Shown one piece after another: positions 5,711 through 52,244 of a DNA stretch of 64,000 nt. The first letter of the stretch is position 1, and each line of letters begins with the position of its first letter. The DNA comes from Parcubacteria group bacterium (lineage in GTDB: Bacteria > Patescibacteriota > Minisyncoccia > Phycocordibacterales > UBA2135), in contig JACQLQ010000001.1 in NCBI GenBank assembly GCA_016204045.1, positions 106,766 through 170,765 on the forward strand, given 5' to 3'. Below the pieces are notes generated by a model. That model was not told the DNA's origin. It saw nothing but the letters and a program-made list of their open reading frames with translations, and searched no databases. Both the position numbers and the translations under genes were made by a program.

Positions 5711-5781
5711 TGGACTCACCGGGAATCGAACCCGGGCCTCGGCAATGCGAATGCCGCGTAATACCACTTTACTATGAGCCC
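5711..5781 (-). tRNA. tRNA-Ala (anticodon CGC)
   Basis: Minus-strand cloverleaf: acceptor gggctca/tgagtcc (one G-U pair), anticodon stem cggca/tgccg with loop ttcgcat (anticodon CGC), T-arm cccgg-gttcgattc-ccggg. The anticodon call is less certain than the tRNA call. Confidence 0.6.
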
Positions 5782-5790
5782 CCCTACCTC

Positions 5791-6014
5791 TAATCGGGGT
5801 GGGCAGACGCTTCGCTATCTCACTCTTTGGAAACCCACGTCCCTATTGCCTGCCAGCATACGCTGGCAACGGCAATTTCGCTTTGCGAATCGGATGAAAA
5901 GCAAAGCAGTTTGCTTTTCATTTCTACTCCGCCCCTCGACGGGCTCGGGGCTGCCTTCCTCCACGGGAAAACTACAGTTTTCCCGACCCCTTTCGTGTTC
6001 GGTTCTGCCCACCC
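5791..6014 (-). ncRNA. tRNA-linked structured RNA element, copy L1 (~224 nt, unknown family)
   Basis: Minus strand. The 5' end ggtgggcagaaccgaac is the reverse complement (16/17) of the T-arm/acceptor 3' region of the upstream tRNA-Pro(CGG). The 3' end tctgcccaccccgatta is an exact 17-nt direct copy of that tRNA's 3' end plus 3-nt trailer. The core shares blocks with copy L2, including a covarying hairpin (gggaaaac/gttttccc here against ggggaaaca/tgtttcccc in L2), gaggaaggcag and gtttccaaagagtgagatagcgaagcgtct. A -10-like tagtatatt lies just upstream. Confidence 0.6.
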
Positions 6015-6064
6015 TCTAAAAATATACTACACAAACAAAAAAGTTTGTTTCGTCATTTTTATAA

Positions 6065-6135
6065 TCGGGGTGGGCAGAATCGAACTGCCGCTACGGAGTC
6101 CCGAACCCCGCGTACTACCACTATACTACACCCCG
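6065..6135 (-). tRNA. tRNA-Pro (anticodon CGG)
   Basis: Acceptor cggggtg/caccccg, anticodon stem cgggg/ctccg with loop ttcggga (anticodon CGG, G37), T-arm ggcag-ttcgatt-ctgcc. Confidence 0.75.
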
Positions 6136-6136
6136 A

Positions 6137-15144: not shown

Positions 15145-15215
15145 GCGGGATTAGTTAAATGGTATAACATCAGTTTTCCAAACTGAGGTCGGGAGTTCGA
15201 TTCTCCCATCCCGCA
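15145..15215 (+). tRNA. tRNA-Gly (anticodon TCC)
   Basis: Acceptor gcgggat/atcccgc, anticodon stem tcagt/actga with loop tttccaa (anticodon TCC), T-arm gggag-ttcgatt-ctccc. Confidence 0.7.
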
Positions 15216-15270
15216 TTAAATGAAATTTTCGTACCTTTAGGTACCGAAATTTTATCTCATTGGGTATAAT

Positions 15271-15396
15271 GGGAGAATCGAACGGGAAGGGGGTCGGGGA
15301 AACACATGTTTCCCCGTAGAGGAAGGCAGGGCGAAGCCCGTTGGAAAACCGCAGGTTTCCAAAGAGTGAGATAGCGAAGCGTCTCCCATCCCGCAT
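15271..15396 (+). ncRNA. tRNA-linked structured RNA element, copy L2 (~125 nt)
   Basis: Extended -10 tgggtataat sits immediately upstream. The 5' end tgggagaatcgaac is the perfect reverse complement of tRNA-Gly positions ~53-66. The 3' end tctcccatcccgcatcaaatg is a direct copy of the tRNA-Gly 3' end plus trailer (tctcccatcccgcattaaatg). The core is homologous to L1 with a compensatory hairpin. It ends 3-4 nt before the start of the downstream HAD-phosphatase gene. Confidence 0.6.
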
Positions 15397-15399
15397 CAA

Positions 15400-15903
15400 A
15401 TGCAAAAATACGCCTTTTTAGACAGAGATGGAACATTCCTTTGGGAACCAGAGCGTCCCGAGGGTGTCGATCCGCGAGAAACTTTTCCATTGAAATCCAT
15501 GGATGAGTTTAAGTTCATGGAGGGTGCTATTGAGGGCATTCGTAAACTCGCGGATAAGGAATACAAACTCGTTATGGTAACGAACCAAACTTTCCTCGGG
15601 ACACCAAAACATCCCAAAGAAATGTTTGATAAAGTTATGGAAAAAATTGACGAGGAGTTGGCGAAATATACTATCACTTTCGAGTTCAAAATGGTCTGTC
15701 CACACGGACCGGATGAAGGGTGCGATTGTCGAAAACCGCAAATTGGCGGCTTGGAAGATTTTTTACGAGAGCATGAGGTCGATTTCACGCACTCGATCAT
15801 GTTCGGAGACAGAACAACCGACGAGGAGTTCGCAAAAAACATTGGTATACGATTTGTAAAAGTGAAGACAAACGAACACTTTGTTGTTCCGGACGATATT
15901 TAA
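15400..15903 (+). CDS. HAD-superfamily phosphatase, GmhB/histidinol-phosphatase-like (D,D-heptose 1,7-bisphosphate phosphatase family)
   Basis: FLDRDGT (motif I), VTNQ, CDCRKPQ and FGDRTTDEEFAKNIG are the family motifs. Confidence 0.7.
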   Translation: MQKYAFLDRDGTFLWEPERPEGVDPRETFPLKSMDEFKFMEGAIEGIRKLADKEYKLVMVTNQTFLGTPKHPKEMFDKVMEKIDEELAKYTITFEFKMVCPHGPDEGCDCRKPQIGGLEDFLREHEVDFTHSIMFGDRTTDEEFAKNIGIRFVKVKTNEHFVVPDDI

Positions 15904-41320: not shown

Positions 41321-42583
41321 GTGACTACGCGAACGGAAGTGTCAGTGCCAAGGCTAGAGGACTTCAACATCGCTCCTCGATGCGGGTTCCTGCCAGAGCG
41401 AGAGCCGCTCGAATTTTTTCAAGAAGATGGTGCGGGCGGTTACTGGCCATGGGCACGCGGAATTCAAGATGTCGCAAACGTACTCCCGAAACTTTTGACG
41501 ACAAAACATGTGCGCAGGTGTATTGCAGAGGAGGTCGAAGGCAAGTGGTCTTCACGCGATAATGAAAGAATCCTCAAGCTTTCCAAATCCGCCCAGCACT
41601 GCTTAATGCGCGTAGTCTCTTTTGTTGGCAATGCGTGGGTTCATGGTGGCATCATTGATATGTGGGGCAGTAAGGCAGAGGCGCATGTGCCAGAGTGGCT
41701 TGCTCAACCTTGGTGTCTCCTCGCAGAAGAGCTGGGCACTACGCCAACACTTTCATATGCGTGGTACGCGCTTCACAATTGGAAGCTTACCGATCCTTCA
41801 GGTCCGATCTCGCTTGAAAACGTCGTGCTCATCAATAATTTCCTTGGGGGACTCGACGAAGAGGGATTTGTGAAGGTTCATATCGCCGTCGAGGCCGCTT
41901 GGGCCAACCTTCCGCTTGCGACGACGCGTGCTATCAAGGCTGTTTTCGATGACGACCCGAGAGAGCTCGAAGATGCGCTTAAGAGCGTACGAGACGGGCA
42001 AAAAGCTGCTCTTCAAGAAATGGAGAAAATGTGGCAATGGTGTTCGCCAAAAGTGTATTATGACCGCGTGCGCCTTCACATTGCAGGATGGCATAACAAT
42101 CCCGCACTCCCGAATGGTATTGTCTATGAAGGGGTGGAAAAATTTGGAGGGAAGCCGCAGCAATTTGGCGGTGAAACGGGTGCGCAGAGCTCGGGTGTGC
42201 CTCTACAATACGCCTTACTCGGTGTTCAGCACGAGGATGATGCATTCCTCAAGTATCTCCTTGGGATGCGGCAACACATGCCGCGCGAACACCGAATGTT
42301 TATTGAGAAAATAGAAGAAGTGAGTCGATCAGGGCTTTCTATCCGTGAATACGTGCTCGTGCATAGGATTTCGCATCACTCACTCCTCAAGGTGTATCGA
42401 GAGTGCCTCGCCATGCTCGAAGCGTTTCTTGCGCTCCACTACCGGTTTGTTGAGGAATATATTGCTGCGCAGGAGCAAACACTTGCTTTCAACACCACAA
42501 AGTACGGGACCGGGGGCACACACGCGCTTCCGTACCTCATGAAGCACCTTGATCGCATCCGAGTATTAAGGGAGGAAACATAA
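41321..42583 (+). CDS. indoleamine 2,3-dioxygenase-like heme dioxygenase
   Basis: GGETGAQSSGVPLQYALLGV aligns with the IDO GGSAGQSS motif, and MRQHMPREHRMFIEKIEE with the IDO MRxYMPPAHRNF region around the proximal His. About 420 aa. Confidence 0.6.
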   Translation: MTTRTEVSVPRLEDFNIAPRCGFLPEREPLEFFQEDGAGGYWPWARGIQDVANVLPKLLTTKHVRRCIAEEVEGKWSSRDNERILKLSKSAQHCLMRVVSFVGNAWVHGGIIDMWGSKAEAHVPEWLAQPWCLLAEELGTTPTLSYAWYALHNWKLTDPSGPISLENVVLINNFLGGLDEEGFVKVHIAVEAAWANLPLATTRAIKAVFDDDPRELEDALKSVRDGQKAALQEMEKMWQWCSPKVYYDRVRLHIAGWHNNPALPNGIVYEGVEKFGGKPQQFGGETGAQSSGVPLQYALLGVQHEDDAFLKYLLGMRQHMPREHRMFIEKIEEVSRSGLSIREYVLVHRISHHSLLKVYRECLAMLEAFLALHYRFVEEYIAAQEQTLAFNTTKYGTGGTHALPYLMKHLDRIRVLREET

Positions 42584-48650: not shown

Positions 48651-51600
48651 ATGTCGAAGGCAGAAGATTCTCAAAAAAAGAGCATTGCTGACCTCGAAAG
48701 AGGAATACTCCGCTTCTGGAGTGATAACAAGATTTTTGAGAAGTCCCTTGCCAAGAAGTCTCCTAAGGGCGAGTTTACTTTTTATGATGGCCCTCCTTTT
48801 GCGAATGGCTTGCCCCACTACGGTCACATCCTCACTGGTGTTATTAAAGACGCGATACCTCGTTTCCAAACGATGCGTGGCTATCATGTTAACCGTCGCT
48901 GGGGATGGGATTGCCACGGCCTTCCTGTCGAGTATGAGATAGAAAAAGAACTTGGACTCAAGACAAAGCGCGAGATTGAGGAATACGGCATAGAAAACTT
49001 TAACAAAAAAGCCCGCGAGGCAATCATGCGCTATGCGGGTGATTGGCGCCAAATCATCCCAAAAACAGGGCGGTGGGTTGATATGGATCGCGACTACCGT
49101 ACGATGGACTCGTCGTACACCGAATCAGTGTGGTGGGTCTTCAAGTCGCTCTATGATAAGGGACTCGTTTACGAAGGCTTCAAGCCAATGCACCTTTGTC
49201 CTCGCTGTGAGACAACGCTCTCGAACTTCGAGGTGAGCCAGGGATACAAAGACGTGACCGACATTTCTGTGACGGTGAAGCTACCGTTAAAAAAAGAGCC
49301 GGAAACCTCCCTCCTTATTTGGACTACAACGCCGTGGACACTTCCTGGCAATATGGCTGCGGCGGTTAATCCGAGTACCTCATATATCAAATACAAACTT
49401 CTTGATACCGAGGTCCCCGCGGGGGAGTTTGTTATTATCGCCAAAGATCGAGGTGCCGAGATCCTCAGAGATAAGAAGTACGAAATAGTCGAAGAATTTA
49501 CAGGTGACAAACTTGTAGGTCTTTCTTACACCCCACCCTTTGCCTACTACACGGACGCCACACTAAAGCACAAAGGGCATGCATGGAAGGTATACGCAGC
49601 AGACTATGTTACAACGACTGATGGCACTGGAATTGTGCATCTGGCGCCAGCGTTCGGAGAAGATGACCTAAGGCTCGCAAAAGAAAACGACATACCTGTC
49701 GTGCATCATATTGGAACAGACGGAAGATTCAAAAAAGAAGTTACTGACTTTGTCGGTGAAATGGTAAAGCCCATACAGGATTTGCAGGCAACTGACGTGC
49801 TCGTCTTGAAGAACTTATCTCACCGAGGACTTCTTTTCGCAAAAGAGAAGATTACTCACTCGTATCCGCATTGTTGGCGATGCGATACACCGCTTTTGAA
49901 TTACGCCGCAAGTTCATGGTTTGTAAAAGTGACCGCCATCAAAGATGATCTCATAAAAGCAAACAAGAAAGTTTCATGGGTCCCGGAAGATATTCGTGAC
50001 GGTAGGTTTGGAAAATGGCTCGAGGGTGCGCGCGACTGGGCAGTGTCTCGTTCGCGGTTTTGGGGAGCGCCAATCCCCGCATGGAGATGTCAAAAATGTG
50101 AACGCTTAGAGATCGTCGGCTCACTCACTGAACTGCGAGAGAAGAGTGCGGATTCAGGTAATACGTTCTTCATCATGCGGCACGGCGAGGCGCGAAGTAA
50201 CAAAGAAGGATTTGTGAGCGCCTCCATCCATGCAGGCAACCACCTTACGGAAAAAGGCAAAAAAGAAGTTGATAAAGCAGCGAAGTTTCTGCGGAGACAA
50301 AATATCGATCTCATCATTGCCTCTCCACTCGAACGTACCAAAGAGACAGCGCTTCGCACAGCAAAAAACATCGGGCTCAAAAAAGATAAAGTTATCTTCT
50401 CCGACCTCATTCGAGAGGTGGGCGTTGGTGTGTATGAAGGGAGGCCACTTTCAGAATGGCGTTTACAATTCCCTTCATTGGAAGATAAATTTAAAGTGCG
50501 TCCGGATGGTGGCGAGAACCTGCCCGACTTGAAGGGGCGCGTTACATCTTTCCTCTACGAACTTGAGCGTAAATATACAAATAAGAACATTCTTATTGTT
50601 TCCCATGCTGATCCGCTTTGGGCGCTTTACACGGGGGCACTCGGGTACACGGAAAAACAAGCGATTGAAGCGCATGGGAGAAAGAAGGATTTCATAAAAA
50701 CAGCAGAAGTAAAAAAACTTCCTTTTGCACCATTACCGCATGACGAAATGCATGCACTCGATTTGCACCGCCCCTACGTCGACGAGGTGAAGTTTAAATG
50801 TCTCTGTGGAGGGAAAATGAAGCGCGTACCAGAAGTCTTTGACTGCTGGTTTGAGTCTGGCGCAATGCCGTATGGGCAAATGCACTACCCGTTTGAAAAC
50901 AAAGACACCTTCGATCCAGAAAAGAAACGGGGATTTCCTGCGAACTTTATTGCAGAGGGACTTGATCAAACAAGAGGCTGGTTCTACTCACTTATCGTCC
51001 TTGGGGTTGCGCTCTTTGGAGAGAGCCCATACAAAAACGTCATCACCAACGGTCTCGTTCTCGCGGAAGATGGACGAAAGATGTCGAAACGACTCAAGAA
51101 TTACCCTGAGCCAACAGATATTATGGCGAAGTATGGTGCGGATGCATTGCGTCTCTATCTCATCTCATCTCCTGTAGTACGCGCAGAAGATCTTCGCTTT
51201 AGTGAAGATGGTGTTCGAGAAATACAAAACAAAATAGTGAGTCGCCTTCGAAATGTGGCATCTTTTTACCACACGTATGCCCTTGATGCAGTGAAAGGGA
51301 CGAGTGTTCCAAAGTCAAACAACGTTCTGGATACATGGATCCGTGTGCGTCTTACTGAAGTAGTCAACAAGGTCACAGAGGCGATGGAGCACTACGAGCT
51401 TGATAAAGCCATCCGTCCGATTGGCGAATTTATCGAAGATCTATCGACGTGGTATCTCCGAAGATCGCGCGACCGCTTTAAGTCAAAAGACGATCTTGAC
51501 CGCAAGAATGCAATAGCAACGACGAGCTATGTGCTGACAGAAATTGCCAAACTCATTGCTCCGTTTGCGCCTTTTGTTGCCGAAGAAATATATCAATCTA

Positions 51601-52244
51601 TTACCTCCAACATGGAGAGTGTTCACCTCGAAACGTGGCCCAAGTATGAACCTCGTTTCCCAATCTGGCCCAATCCGATGGCGCTTTTTCACCGTATTTT
51701 CAGATCCCATGGTGACATAAAGATTCTCGAAGACATGGCAGAGGTGCGACGCATTGTGTCAGTGGCTCTCGAAGCTCGCGCAAGCGCGGGTATTAAGGTG
51801 CGTCAACCATTAGGGAAACTTACTGTTAAGAACAGTAAGACAAAAATTGCGGGTAATGAAGATCTGCTCACGCTCATTAAGGATGAGGTTAATGTAAAAG
51901 AAGTTATTTTTGACGCCGCTCTTGTTACAGATGTCGCACTAGACACAGAAATTACCGAGGAGCTTAGAGAGGAAGGAGTCCTTCGCGACCTCGTTCGCGT
52001 TGTGCAAGATCTGCGTAAAAAAGAAGGATTGCATCCTGGAGACTCTGCGACGCTCTTTATACGCGGGGGTGTCCAAGAAGTTCAGTTTATCAAGAAGTTT
52101 GAAGAGCAACTTAAAGACTCAACAACCGTCGGCGTCATTGAGTTTCGAGATGATGTACAAGGGGAGGAGGCGAAGATCGACACATTTTTGTTTGCTTTAG
52201 CTCTAAACACTCCGACGCTTTCGGCATCTACTAAAAACGAATAG
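48651..52244 (+). CDS. ileS: isoleucyl-tRNA synthetase with an inserted histidine-phosphatase (PGAM-like) domain
   Basis: PHYGHILTG (HIGH), editing CP1 domain, KMSKRL (KMSKS) and anticodon-binding domain are all present. An extra ~192 aa (nt ~50156-50730) carries IMRHGEARSN (RHGxxxN) and IVSHADPLW (second catalytic His). It lies between the conserved WRCQKCERLE...ELREKSADS and DLHRPYVDE...VFDCWFESG blocks. Confidence 0.8.
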   Translation: MSKAEDSQKKSIADLERGILRFWSDNKIFEKSLAKKSPKGEFTFYDGPPFANGLPHYGHILTGVIKDAIPRFQTMRGYHVNRRWGWDCHGLPVEYEIEKELGLKTKREIEEYGIENFNKKAREAIMRYAGDWRQIIPKTGRWVDMDRDYRTMDSSYTESVWWVFKSLYDKGLVYEGFKPMHLCPRCETTLSNFEVSQGYKDVTDISVTVKLPLKKEPETSLLIWTTTPWTLPGNMAAAVNPSTSYIKYKLLDTEVPAGEFVIIAKDRGAEILRDKKYEIVEEFTGDKLVGLSYTPPFAYYTDATLKHKGHAWKVYAADYVTTTDGTGIVHLAPAFGEDDLRLAKENDIPVVHHIGTDGRFKKEVTDFVGEMVKPIQDLQATDVLVLKNLSHRGLLFAKEKITHSYPHCWRCDTPLLNYAASSWFVKVTAIKDDLIKANKKVSWVPEDIRDGRFGKWLEGARDWAVSRSRFWGAPIPAWRCQKCERLEIVGSLTELREKSADSGNTFFIMRHGEARSNKEGFVSASIHAGNHLTEKGKKEVDKAAKFLRRQNIDLIIASPLERTKETALRTAKNIGLKKDKVIFSDLIREVGVGVYEGRPLSEWRLQFPSLEDKFKVRPDGGENLPDLKGRVTSFLYELERKYTNKNILIVSHADPLWALYTGALGYTEKQAIEAHGRKKDFIKTAEVKKLPFAPLPHDEMHALDLHRPYVDEVKFKCLCGGKMKRVPEVFDCWFESGAMPYGQMHYPFENKDTFDPEKKRGFPANFIAEGLDQTRGWFYSLIVLGVALFGESPYKNVITNGLVLAEDGRKMSKRLKNYPEPTDIMAKYGADALRLYLISSPVVRAEDLRFSEDGVREIQNKIVSRLRNVASFYHTYALDAVKGTSVPKSNNVLDTWIRVRLTEVVNKVTEAMEHYELDKAIRPIGEFIEDLSTWYLRRSRDRFKSKDDLDRKNAIATTSYVLTEIAKLIAPFAPFVAEEIYQSITSNMESVHLETWPKYEPRFPIWPNPMALFHRIFRSHGDIKILEDMAEVRRIVSVALEARASAGIKVRQPLGKLTVKNSKTKIAGNEDLLTLIKDEVNVKEVIFDAALVTDVALDTEITEELREEGVLRDLVRVVQDLRKKEGLHPGDSATLFIRGGVQEVQFIKKFEEQLKDSTTVGVIEFRDDVQGEEAKIDTFLFALALNTPTLSASTKNE

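Follow-up and report, generated by a model that had tools for sequence, protein, structure and literature searches.

A family of RtT-like structured elements behind tRNA genes of Paceibacteria

What kind of element carries, at both of its ends, copies of the 3' end of the tRNA gene behind which it lies? The question is raised by two related sequences in a 64,000-nucleotide (nt) stretch of the genome of a Parcubacteria group bacterium (contig JACQLQ010000001.1 of assembly GCA_016204045.1, positions 106,766 to 170,765 of the forward strand; this whole stretch is called "the window" below, and coordinates without a locus name refer to it). The two are L1 (5791-6014, minus strand), which lies 3' of tRNA-Pro(CGG), and L2 (15269-15395, plus strand), which lies 3' of tRNA-Gly(TCC). 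A first-pass annotation made from the DNA letters had described them as homologous elements whose ends copy the 3' region of the neighbouring tRNA, inverted at the 5' end and direct at the 3' end, and ARAGORN, Rfam and repeat analysis bore out both statements. We report here that L1 and L2 belong to a new structured family that is absent from Rfam, is specific to Paceibacteria and is RtT-like, in that it shares its layout with the RtT RNA of Escherichia coli.

The two elements and their family

The host gene of L1, tRNA-Pro(CGG), lies at 6064-6136 on the minus strand (found by ARAGORN; 62.4 bits with the Rfam tRNA model), and that of L2, tRNA-Gly(TCC), at 15145-15215 on the plus strand (ARAGORN and Rfam); these programs find six tRNA genes in the window, two of which have an element behind them. 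Both end repeats of L1 have their source in the segment of tRNA-Pro that runs from the T-loop to the 3' end. The inverted copy at its 5' end, GGGTGGGCAGAACCGAAC (5997-6014, minus strand), is an 18-nt inverted repeat of 6068-6085 with 94% complementarity; it is the reverse complement of tRNA-Pro positions ~53-70 (T-loop, 3' strand of the T-stem and part of the 3' strand of the acceptor stem) and forms the 5' strand of P1, the helix that closes the element. The direct copy at its 3' end, TCTGCCCACCCCGATTA (5791-5807, minus strand), matches 6062-6078 at 17 of 17 nt and comprises the tRNA-Pro 3' end plus 3 nt of trailer. In L2 the inverted copy ATGGGAGAATCGAAC (15269-15283, plus strand) is complementary at 15 of 15 positions to 15195-15209, which makes it the reverse complement of the tRNA-Gly T-loop, the T-stem 3' strand and the first two acceptor nucleotides, and the direct copy of the tRNA-Gly 3' end and trailer (15382-15405, plus strand) repeats 15202-15225 over 24 nt at 92%; the ATG (15400) of the downstream HAD-family gene lies inside this direct copy. 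The bodies between these ends share an exact 30-nt block, GTTTCCAAAGAGTGAGATAGCGAAGCGTCT, that occurs exactly twice in the window and in none of 100 shuffles of it, which confirms the earlier observation of such a block.

Between each tRNA and its element lies a spacer. That of L1 (6015-6063, minus strand; 49 nt, A/T-rich, with a weak hairpin) is, by sequence and foldback analysis, the tip of an imperfect foldback that runs from the T-loop of the tRNA to the inverted copy of the T-loop; that of L2 (15216-15268, plus strand) is also a foldback tip and holds a terminator-like hairpin, GAAATTTTCGTACC / GGTACCGAAATTTT, whose left arm is similar to the duplicated start of the downstream open reading frame (ORF). 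L1 stands within a tRNA cluster of the order Val-Pro-[L1]-Ala, because tRNA-Ala begins at 5781, nine nt past the end of the element. In this cluster tRNA-Val and tRNA-Pro are contiguous at 6136/6137, with zero spacer. CCA is encoded in none of the six tRNA genes of the window, and CA(A) stands after many tRNA genes of related loci.

Are these elements copies of a known RNA? Rfam 15, applied to the whole window at the gathering score and to L1 and L2 at E≤10, returned tRNAs and noise only and matched no family. The first-pass annotation had found no resemblance to the conserved blocks of transfer-messenger RNA (tmRNA), RNase P RNA or signal recognition particle (SRP) RNA, and this result agrees with it; ARAGORN found no tmRNA in the window, and no Rfam model of 6S RNA, 5S RNA, group I or group II introns or small self-cleaving ribozymes matched either. 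A resemblance to SRP domain IV (GGAGGAAGGCAG) and loose ones to RNase P P4 and 5S loop E had no covariance-model support and were dropped.

Further copies were found as follows. An exact 18-mer from the conserved block, a probe that recognises ~60% of the known copies, has 17 sites among 185,579 species-representative genomes; 11 of these lie in Parcubacteria, Paceibacterota, Yonathbacteria or Lloydbacteria assemblies that carry the element, and the other six are chance occurrences in unrelated DNA. A degenerate pattern applied to metagenomes gave 42 stretches, 39 of them real elements. A covariance model built from 12 copies gives scores of 35-151 bits on the copies, and its sole matches in the window are L1 (113.5 bits) and L2 (141.7 bits). 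In three scans of viral contigs the element was absent; 80 of the at least 120 chance pattern matches there were compared with the covariance model, none of them matched, and they serve for that reason as a negative control of 667 kb of unrelated viral DNA. There are ~38 further non-redundant copies, all of them in Parcubacteria/Paceibacterota assemblies; the family is rare, and where it is present it is often multi-copy. Judged by the proteins that the window encodes, its organism falls near Kaiserbacteria, within the Parcubacteria group.

As many as 35 of the 39 non-redundant elements (L1 and L2 included) lie directly 3' of a tRNA or tmRNA gene and in the same orientation, with three of these 35 hosts assigned by eye. 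The hosts are tRNA-Arg (11 copies, one of which, L008, was assigned by eye, its tRNA being cut by the contig end), tRNA-Gly (8), tRNA-Glu (6), tRNA-His and tRNA-Pro (2 each), tRNA-Phe, tRNA-Ile and tRNA-Gln (1 each) and tmRNA (1 copy and 2 probable ones), and more than 15 different tRNA/tmRNA ends are joined to one core. Two checks that the first-pass annotation had proposed thus had positive outcomes: the covariance model brought further copies and, as described below, covariation, and the end repeats match the adjacent host at almost all loci.

Two loci depart from this pattern. At L025:1968-2243 (minus strand) two tandem divergent copies with short closing helices lie behind rpsI, where there is no tRNA, and their 3' ends are similar to the last 20 nt of rpsI (14/20); this is a weak hint that duplication of the upstream target perhaps extends beyond tRNAs. 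At L045:2290-2433 there is a shortened copy whose P4 hairpin is lengthened by an inverted duplicate of AAAGAGTGAGATAGAG; it has lost its 5' half, has no tRNA upstream and is a rearranged relic.

Host-derived ends and the folded core

Throughout the family the unit has the order A - A' - core - A, where A stands for the 3' segment of the host gene, which begins at the T-loop, passes the 3' end and reaches into the trailer, A' stands for this segment in inverted form, and the core is ~95 nt long and about 90% conserved. The start of the direct copy is fixed at the last T-loop positions (~59/60) and its end is variable, past the discriminator and into the trailer; its ungapped match to the host runs from 9 to 43 nt (52 nt at 85% in L021), and the copy in L020, perfect over 43 nt, takes in the tRNA terminator. 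The 5' arm is the reverse complement of the tRNA from position 53 onward, and its T-loop complement tracks the host variants TTCGACT, TTCGAGA, TTCAATT and TTCGAAT, as well as TTCGAGT at six of seven positions. How far the 5' arm reaches into the acceptor complement varies: it is perfect over 20-23 nt in L009 and L049, covers the T-stem only in L2 and is interrupted by a hairpin in L001, L003 and L023; in L023 and L039 it matches the real tRNA trailer and not that of the distal copy. All the way from the T-loop to its inverted copy the sequence folds back imperfectly on itself (~70% identity), and the "terminator" hairpin forms the tip. The idea that the 5' arm was inherited from an earlier host tRNA was dropped, because the T-loop complement always follows the present host, and a stronger decay of the acceptor complement than of the remaining foldback was not supported either (68% versus 68-78%, in a noisy register).

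Some loci hold additional units of related appearance. Right behind the element at L046:3700-3860 (minus strand) lies a different unit of ~140 nt; its start is again a T-loop complement and its end is the tRNA-Arg 3' end, present here for the third time, which suggests that other cores occur with the same layout. A second small structured module, GCAAGACCTTTTGAG...CCAAAAGGTGTAC...CTGTAAG (~110-150 nt), is present upstream of tRNA-Phe at L009:2297-2560, where it is accompanied by a duplicate of the tRNA leader and tRNA positions 1-41, a mirror image of the 3' duplication; it also occurs at L053:1037-1137 and nested in P2 of L047 and L053, and it has no Rfam match.

In a model-based alignment of 38 copies, which is fitted to the covariance model, standard pairs fill 90.4% of the cells, versus 76.7% in shuffles and 34-61% with slid partners, and both-sided changes occur at 20 of the 28 pairs; when the count that adds the T-loop pairing described below is taken together with this one, the ranges are 90-92% for the copies, 77-80% for shuffles and 33-61% for slid partners, with 20-21 pairs changed on both sides. 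The hairpin with compensatory changes that had been noticed in L1 and L2 turned out to be the family helix P2, a 9-bp hairpin that covaries across the 38 copies. P3 varies and is missing from some copies, P4 comprises 8 bp and a bulged A, and an optional C-GNA-G mini-hairpin of two base pairs covaries as well. The junction strands are purine-rich and near-invariant (AGGAARGGGG, GUGGAGGAAGGCAG, AAGA), and big modules are tolerated in P2 or P4. P1 has an inner part, the conserved AAUCGAAC/GUGAGAUU helix with a tandem G.A, and an outer part that is host-derived. In the inner part the T-loop complement AAUCGAAC pairs with an invariant GUGAGAU(U), with the tandem G.A between, and is 99% paired; host T-loop variants are accommodated there as U.G wobbles and one compensatory change. 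The outer pairs are retained in only 60-75% of copies. The earlier description of the elements as having tRNA-specific termini and a shared core therefore stands for the outer closing helix, which comes from the tRNA, and has to be amended for the inner T-loop complement, which pairs with the conserved GUGAGAU of the core.

Which strand is folded? P2 has 15 G.U pairs versus 3 A.C pairs, and therefore the structured strand is the tRNA-sense strand. Judged from these comparisons of sequences, then, the core folds as a single strand, the tRNA-sense one, into a predicted, covariation-supported three- or four-way junction.

RtT RNA and the nature of the unit

The RtT RNA of E. coli (the 178-bp tyrT-tyrV repeat, RF00391) lies, like the elements of this family from the candidate phyla radiation (CPR), directly 3' of a tRNA gene and in the same orientation. 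In the region of E. coli K-12 examined here (1286400-1287800; L195) each RtT unit has a 59-nt spacer and then 22 nt antisense to the tRNA-Tyr T-arm and acceptor (86% complementary). A structured core comes next, after which the final 19 nt of the tRNA are repeated in direct orientation, from within the T-loop onward (AATCCTTCCCCCACCACCA). Its curated RF00391 structure has an antisense/sense closing helix with the acceptor tail unpaired, and because the same helix closes the CPR elements the two architectures are the same. Are they one family? The RF00391 covariance model, which gives 134-138 bits on E. coli as a positive control, has no match on L1 or L2 at E≤10 and none in the window at the gathering score, and the best match of the CPR model on E. 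coli is a weak one of 8.9 bits at a diverged unit between tyrT and tyrV. Since neither model finds the other, we have not filed the CPR elements under RF00391; by analogy they are RtT-like in layout, and they are not detectably homologous to RtT.

The two also differ in habit. At the locus examined RtT is tied to tRNA-Tyr (as it is in enterobacteria generally), forms tandem repeats, includes CCA and overlaps a small ORF (tpr), whereas the CPR family lies behind at least 9 tRNA types and tmRNA, is usually single, is without CCA and has signs of mobility. The origin and function of RtT have been unclear since around 1980. The E. coli layout is evidently not a one-off, since a distant phylum has it too, at many tRNA genes and at tmRNA, and a well-supported covarying structured RNA family of the CPR that Rfam lacks turns the RtT curiosity into a class, with ~40 natural variants for the study of tRNA-end mimicry (RNase P, RNase Z, CCA-adding enzyme).

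The reading that we favour, and hold with moderate confidence, is that L1 and L2 are RtT-like RNAs appended to tRNA genes, that the unit is at the same time a small insertion element that rebuilds the tRNA 3' end, and that the RNA is probably released by tRNA-end processing. A' would pair with the second A on the tRNA-sense strand to give the long closing helix P1, from which P2, the optional P3 and P4 would radiate. The unit would be transcribed together with the tRNA or just after it; co-transcription is most plausible for L1, which has a tRNA on either side and no strong terminator. The tRNA end-processing machinery would make the ends of the RNA, and such release is proposed because the 3' end replicates the tRNA 3' end in a T-stem/acceptor-like helix. 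Bosl and Kersten are said to have found, in 1991, that RtT RNA is released from the tyrT transcript by processing. The 3'ETS-leuZ RNA of E. coli is a small RNA derived from a spacer of a tRNA operon, and the elements, L1 between tRNA-Pro and tRNA-Ala in particular, are predicted to resemble such spacer RNAs as stable by-products of processing; spacer RNAs such as 3'ETS-leuZ are lineage-specific trailers that have no tRNA-end repeats, no family-wide fold and no multiplicity of hosts. Release of RtT RNA from the tRNA operon transcript by processing is also reported in a preprint (bioRxiv 10.1101/2024.07.17.603846). Of the candidate explanations offered in the first-pass annotation, that of a structured small RNA closed by a minihelix-like stem is supported by the covarying helices, the wobbles on the tRNA-sense strand, the antisense/sense closing helix and the same arrangement in RtT.

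Over evolution the same unit would act as a protein-less insertion element behind tRNA and tmRNA genes, with the near-universal T-loop as the junction. On entry it would re-copy the flanking host segment in both inverted and direct form, so that the tRNA would stay intact, and the enzyme or enzymes of insertion would act in trans. It might spread by Campbell-type recombination of a small circle, or of a hybrid cDNA, with the tRNA 3' fragment, by template switching or foldback synthesis, or as a folded single-strand recombination site. A non-coding element may thus be able to pass from one tRNA gene to another although it brings no enzyme of its own.

Signs of mobility are as follows. Grouping of the cores does not follow the host: L2 differs by 5.8% from a copy linked to tmRNA and by 21% from L1, which is in the same genome. 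The syntenic tRNA-Arg(CCT) loci L009 and L020 hold different variants, one with and one without the mini-hairpin, and with duplications of 17 nt versus 43 nt. Several contigs end within the element, including one of a second assembly of the source organism that breaks in L2; the repeats thus break assemblies of uncultured genomes at tRNA loci, and they create spurious ORFs as well. Among 38 loci an all-against-all BLAST of the flanking ORFs returned only spurious ORFs across the element and local synteny, and no recurrent flanking protein family; no integrase was found inside or next to the element at these loci or by Pfam on the window genes, no reverse transcriptase among the flanking proteins or by Pfam on the window, and no other recombinase by Pfam on the genes of the window, which are housekeeping genes only. 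Group II introns are reported absent from Patescibacteria (PMC13011429).

How do these units compare with known mobile elements? The terminal inverted repeats are host-derived, not element-specific, and the duplication runs from 9 to 52 nt and is not of one fixed length, which separates the family from miniature inverted-repeat transposable elements and insertion-sequence-type transposons. With islands and prophages that integrases insert at tRNA and tmRNA genes it shares the host range, a direct repeat of the tRNA 3' segment that starts in the T-loop and has a variable 3' reach, and a rebuilt, intact tRNA. Williams reportedly placed one sublocation of integrase targets in tRNA and tmRNA genes at the T-loop, in 2002. 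The CPR unit differs from such islands in that it has no integrase and no cargo, is only ~130-300 nt long, and has an extra inverted copy and a single-strand structure, and in that one conserved core goes with many identity segments (the more than 15 tRNA/tmRNA ends) in place of one fixed attP identity segment per family. An earlier suggestion of a miniature mobile element that rebuilds the tRNA 3' end is therefore supported in part: its genomic signature is there (a duplicated host segment, many ends per core, variant syntenic loci and a sporadic, multi-copy distribution), but the idea of an attP-arm-like core finds no support, as the core folds as a single strand, has no linked integrase and serves many identity segments. 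At L192:4395-5683, in a relative whose inositol monophosphatase is 72% identical, a large serine recombinase gene stands behind tRNA-Ala(CGC); in contrast to the protein-less units, this is an integrative element of the ordinary kind at a tRNA.

Several points weigh against the reading of the units as processed, inserted RNAs. The -10-like boxes that had been marked in front of L1 and L2 did not hold up, as a promoter scan of both regions found no sigma-70-like consensus and no box is conserved in other members; the "tgggtataat" of L2 stands at the place of the acceptor-strand complement in those members. Most copies have a terminator-like hairpin between tRNA and element. The conservation of P4 and of junction J4/1 is in part a product of the search, whose patterns covered these parts, and the GNA triloops and the GCGAAGC motif would suit folded single-stranded DNA as well as RNA. 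We know of no mechanism by which one host segment would be copied in both orientations. A comparison through homologues of the HAD gene and of the inositol monophosphatase gene yielded no empty orthologous site, because the relatives have different tRNA contexts, and insertion is thus inferred and not observed. Finally, three deeply diverged genomes share the order 398-amino-acid gene, tRNA-Gly(TCC), element, with the neighbour protein only 38-43% identical, an order that ancient vertical retention fits as well as repeated homing to the same tRNA end does.

Alternative explanations

In an alternative that we consider unlikely, the unit is a vertically inherited, host-beneficial small RNA that acts in trans, or a ribonucleoprotein scaffold, whose purine-rich junctions GGAGGAAGG, AGGAAAGGGG and AAGAGUGAG bind a conserved partner; the tRNA-derived ends would then be signals for maturation and stability only, and the different hosts would reflect old paralogues and not mobility. 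A core that stays ~90% conserved between genomes whose syntenic neighbour proteins are only 38-43% identical is what such a function would lead one to expect, and synteny is kept at both tRNA-Gly(TCC) and tRNA-Gly(GCC). Like other functional RNAs, the family tolerates expansion modules at its periphery, and the two divergent copies behind rpsI do without a tRNA. However, the distribution is very sporadic for a beneficial RNA (the 18-mer, in spite of recognising ~60% of copies, is found with the element in only 11 of 185,579 species representatives, and the metagenome scan gave 42 stretches of which 39 are the element), near-identical cores occur at different hosts and different cores at syntenic hosts, and the perfect 43-nt duplication in L020 and the breaking of assemblies at the element also speak against this alternative.

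Could the folded strand be DNA? The units might be satellite integrative elements whose recombining form is a folded single strand of DNA, as with integron attC sites or CTX phage, but this seems to us improbable. A and A' in a small circle would mimic the duplex tRNA 3' region, and a tyrosine or HUH enzyme supplied in trans would exchange one strand in the T-loop. Like attC and the attP of CTX phage, the units have an imperfect palindrome that copies the target duplex (the long foldback from the T-loop to the inverted copy), a strand-specific structure and mismatches beside the junction, here the tandem G.A; tRNA and tmRNA hosts and a duplication that starts in the T-loop are hallmarks of integrase targets, and the C-GNA-G triloops are many. 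GCGAAGC is an unusually stable DNA mini-hairpin. Yet attC sites have no conserved central core and stand in cassette arrays beside intI, whereas this family has a conserved core and no linked recombinase; inside the copies and in their surroundings there is neither a recombinase nor a Rep gene, and the element is absent from the viral contigs scanned. The many identity segments per core also speak against it, as we know of no att system that carries many identity segments on one core, and RtT, which has the same layout in E. coli, is reported as an RNA.

Equally improbable, in our view, is a class of protein-less mobile RNA elements that enter at the T-loop, of which E. coli RtT would be a distant and perhaps fossil cousin. 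The core would here act as a ribozyme, or it would offer a scaffold to a host polymerase or ligase that it had hijacked; it would fuse to the 3' part of a pre-tRNA or tmRNA transcript, or prime on tDNA from its two T-loop-like termini, and recombination at the tRNA gene would then fix the chimera in DNA. If true, this would be a bacterial analogue of short interspersed nuclear elements, of retrozymes and of the hybrid-cDNA pathway of Neurospora retroplasmids.

An antisense regulator of tRNA maturation, acting in cis or in trans, had also been put forward, and we give it little credence. Its 5' segment would pair with the T-loop, the T-stem and the 3' strand of the acceptor in the neighbouring pre-tRNA, and the 3' copy would be an internal competitor, so that the whole would form a switch. 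It is true that the 5' inverted copies of L023 and L039 fit the real tRNA and its trailer better than the distal copy, that the inverted copy covers four more nucleotides of the T-loop (positions 53-56), which the direct copy does not reach, and that RtT is classed as cis-regulatory in Rfam. But the acceptor complement is degenerate or hairpin-interrupted in most copies, L2 included, with the outer P1 kept in no more than the fraction given above; the T-loop complement has its conserved partner within the same molecule, which sequesters the antisense segment in the closing helix; and a conserved core of ~95 nt is superfluous for antisense pairing. The notion that the units are ordinary attL/attR scars of prophages or islands that integrases once placed in these tRNA genes, to which the duplicated 3' ends downstream of tRNA and tmRNA genes and the serine recombinase beside tRNA-Ala in a relative might point, is largely refuted and very improbable, as both boundaries are uniform and precise, the conserved core covaries and has G.U pairs, the same core goes with many tRNA ends, and no integrase remnants were found.

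Anatomy of L1 and L2 and other features of the window

Within L1 (all on the minus strand) helix P2, CGGGAAAAC / GTTTTCCCG with the loop TGTA, lies at 5964-5985 by covariation and fold. It is followed by the purine-rich conserved junction J2/3, TGGAGGAAGGCAG (5951-5963; alignment and fold), and by the variable hairpin P3 (5932-5950; fold). The apical part of P4 holds an L1-specific three-hairpin insertion module (5846-5920; fold and blastn); this extra segment, which had been put at ~110 nt, is actually ~75-95 nt long. A homologue of the module is present in P2 of L048 (761-817; 85% over 60 nt by blastn); the module is perhaps a mini-insertion nested in the elements, or else an expansion segment that can move. 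The 3' strand of P4, the junction AAGA and the conserved GTGAGAT, which pairs with the T-loop complement through the tandem G.A, occupy 5817-5835 by pairing analysis, and the optional mini-hairpin AGCGAAGCG (5808-5816), which covaries to ATGAAAT and ACGAAGT in other members, completes the core.

The conserved core of L2 (15284-15381, plus strand; the 141.7-bit match of the covariance model) consists of J1/2, P2 (15295-15316), J2/3 (15317-15329), P3 (15330-15338), P4 (15342-15361), AAGA and GTGAGAT (15362-15372) and the mini-hairpin (15373-15381). P4 of L2 (15347-15363) matches the anticodon arm of tRNA-Gly(TCC) (15166-15182) at 14 of 17 positions, both with TTTCCAAA, and the match is in register with the 3' end repeat (spacing 181 versus 180). 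A descent of the element from tRNA-Gly(UCC) was rejected, as the family consensus is no more similar to tRNA-Gly than it is to tRNAs of other kinds, and scores equally high came from 332 of 2000 shuffles.

Two protein genes of the window are recorded for their own sake. The isoleucyl-tRNA synthetase (1197 amino acids; 48651-52244, plus strand) has a histidine-phosphatase (His_Phos_1) domain at residues 507-671, between the halves of its catalytic domain. A homologue of indoleamine 2,3-dioxygenase (41321-42583, plus strand; Pfam IDO, E=2e-63) lies beside the genes for thymidylate synthase and dihydrofolate reductase in this CPR genome.

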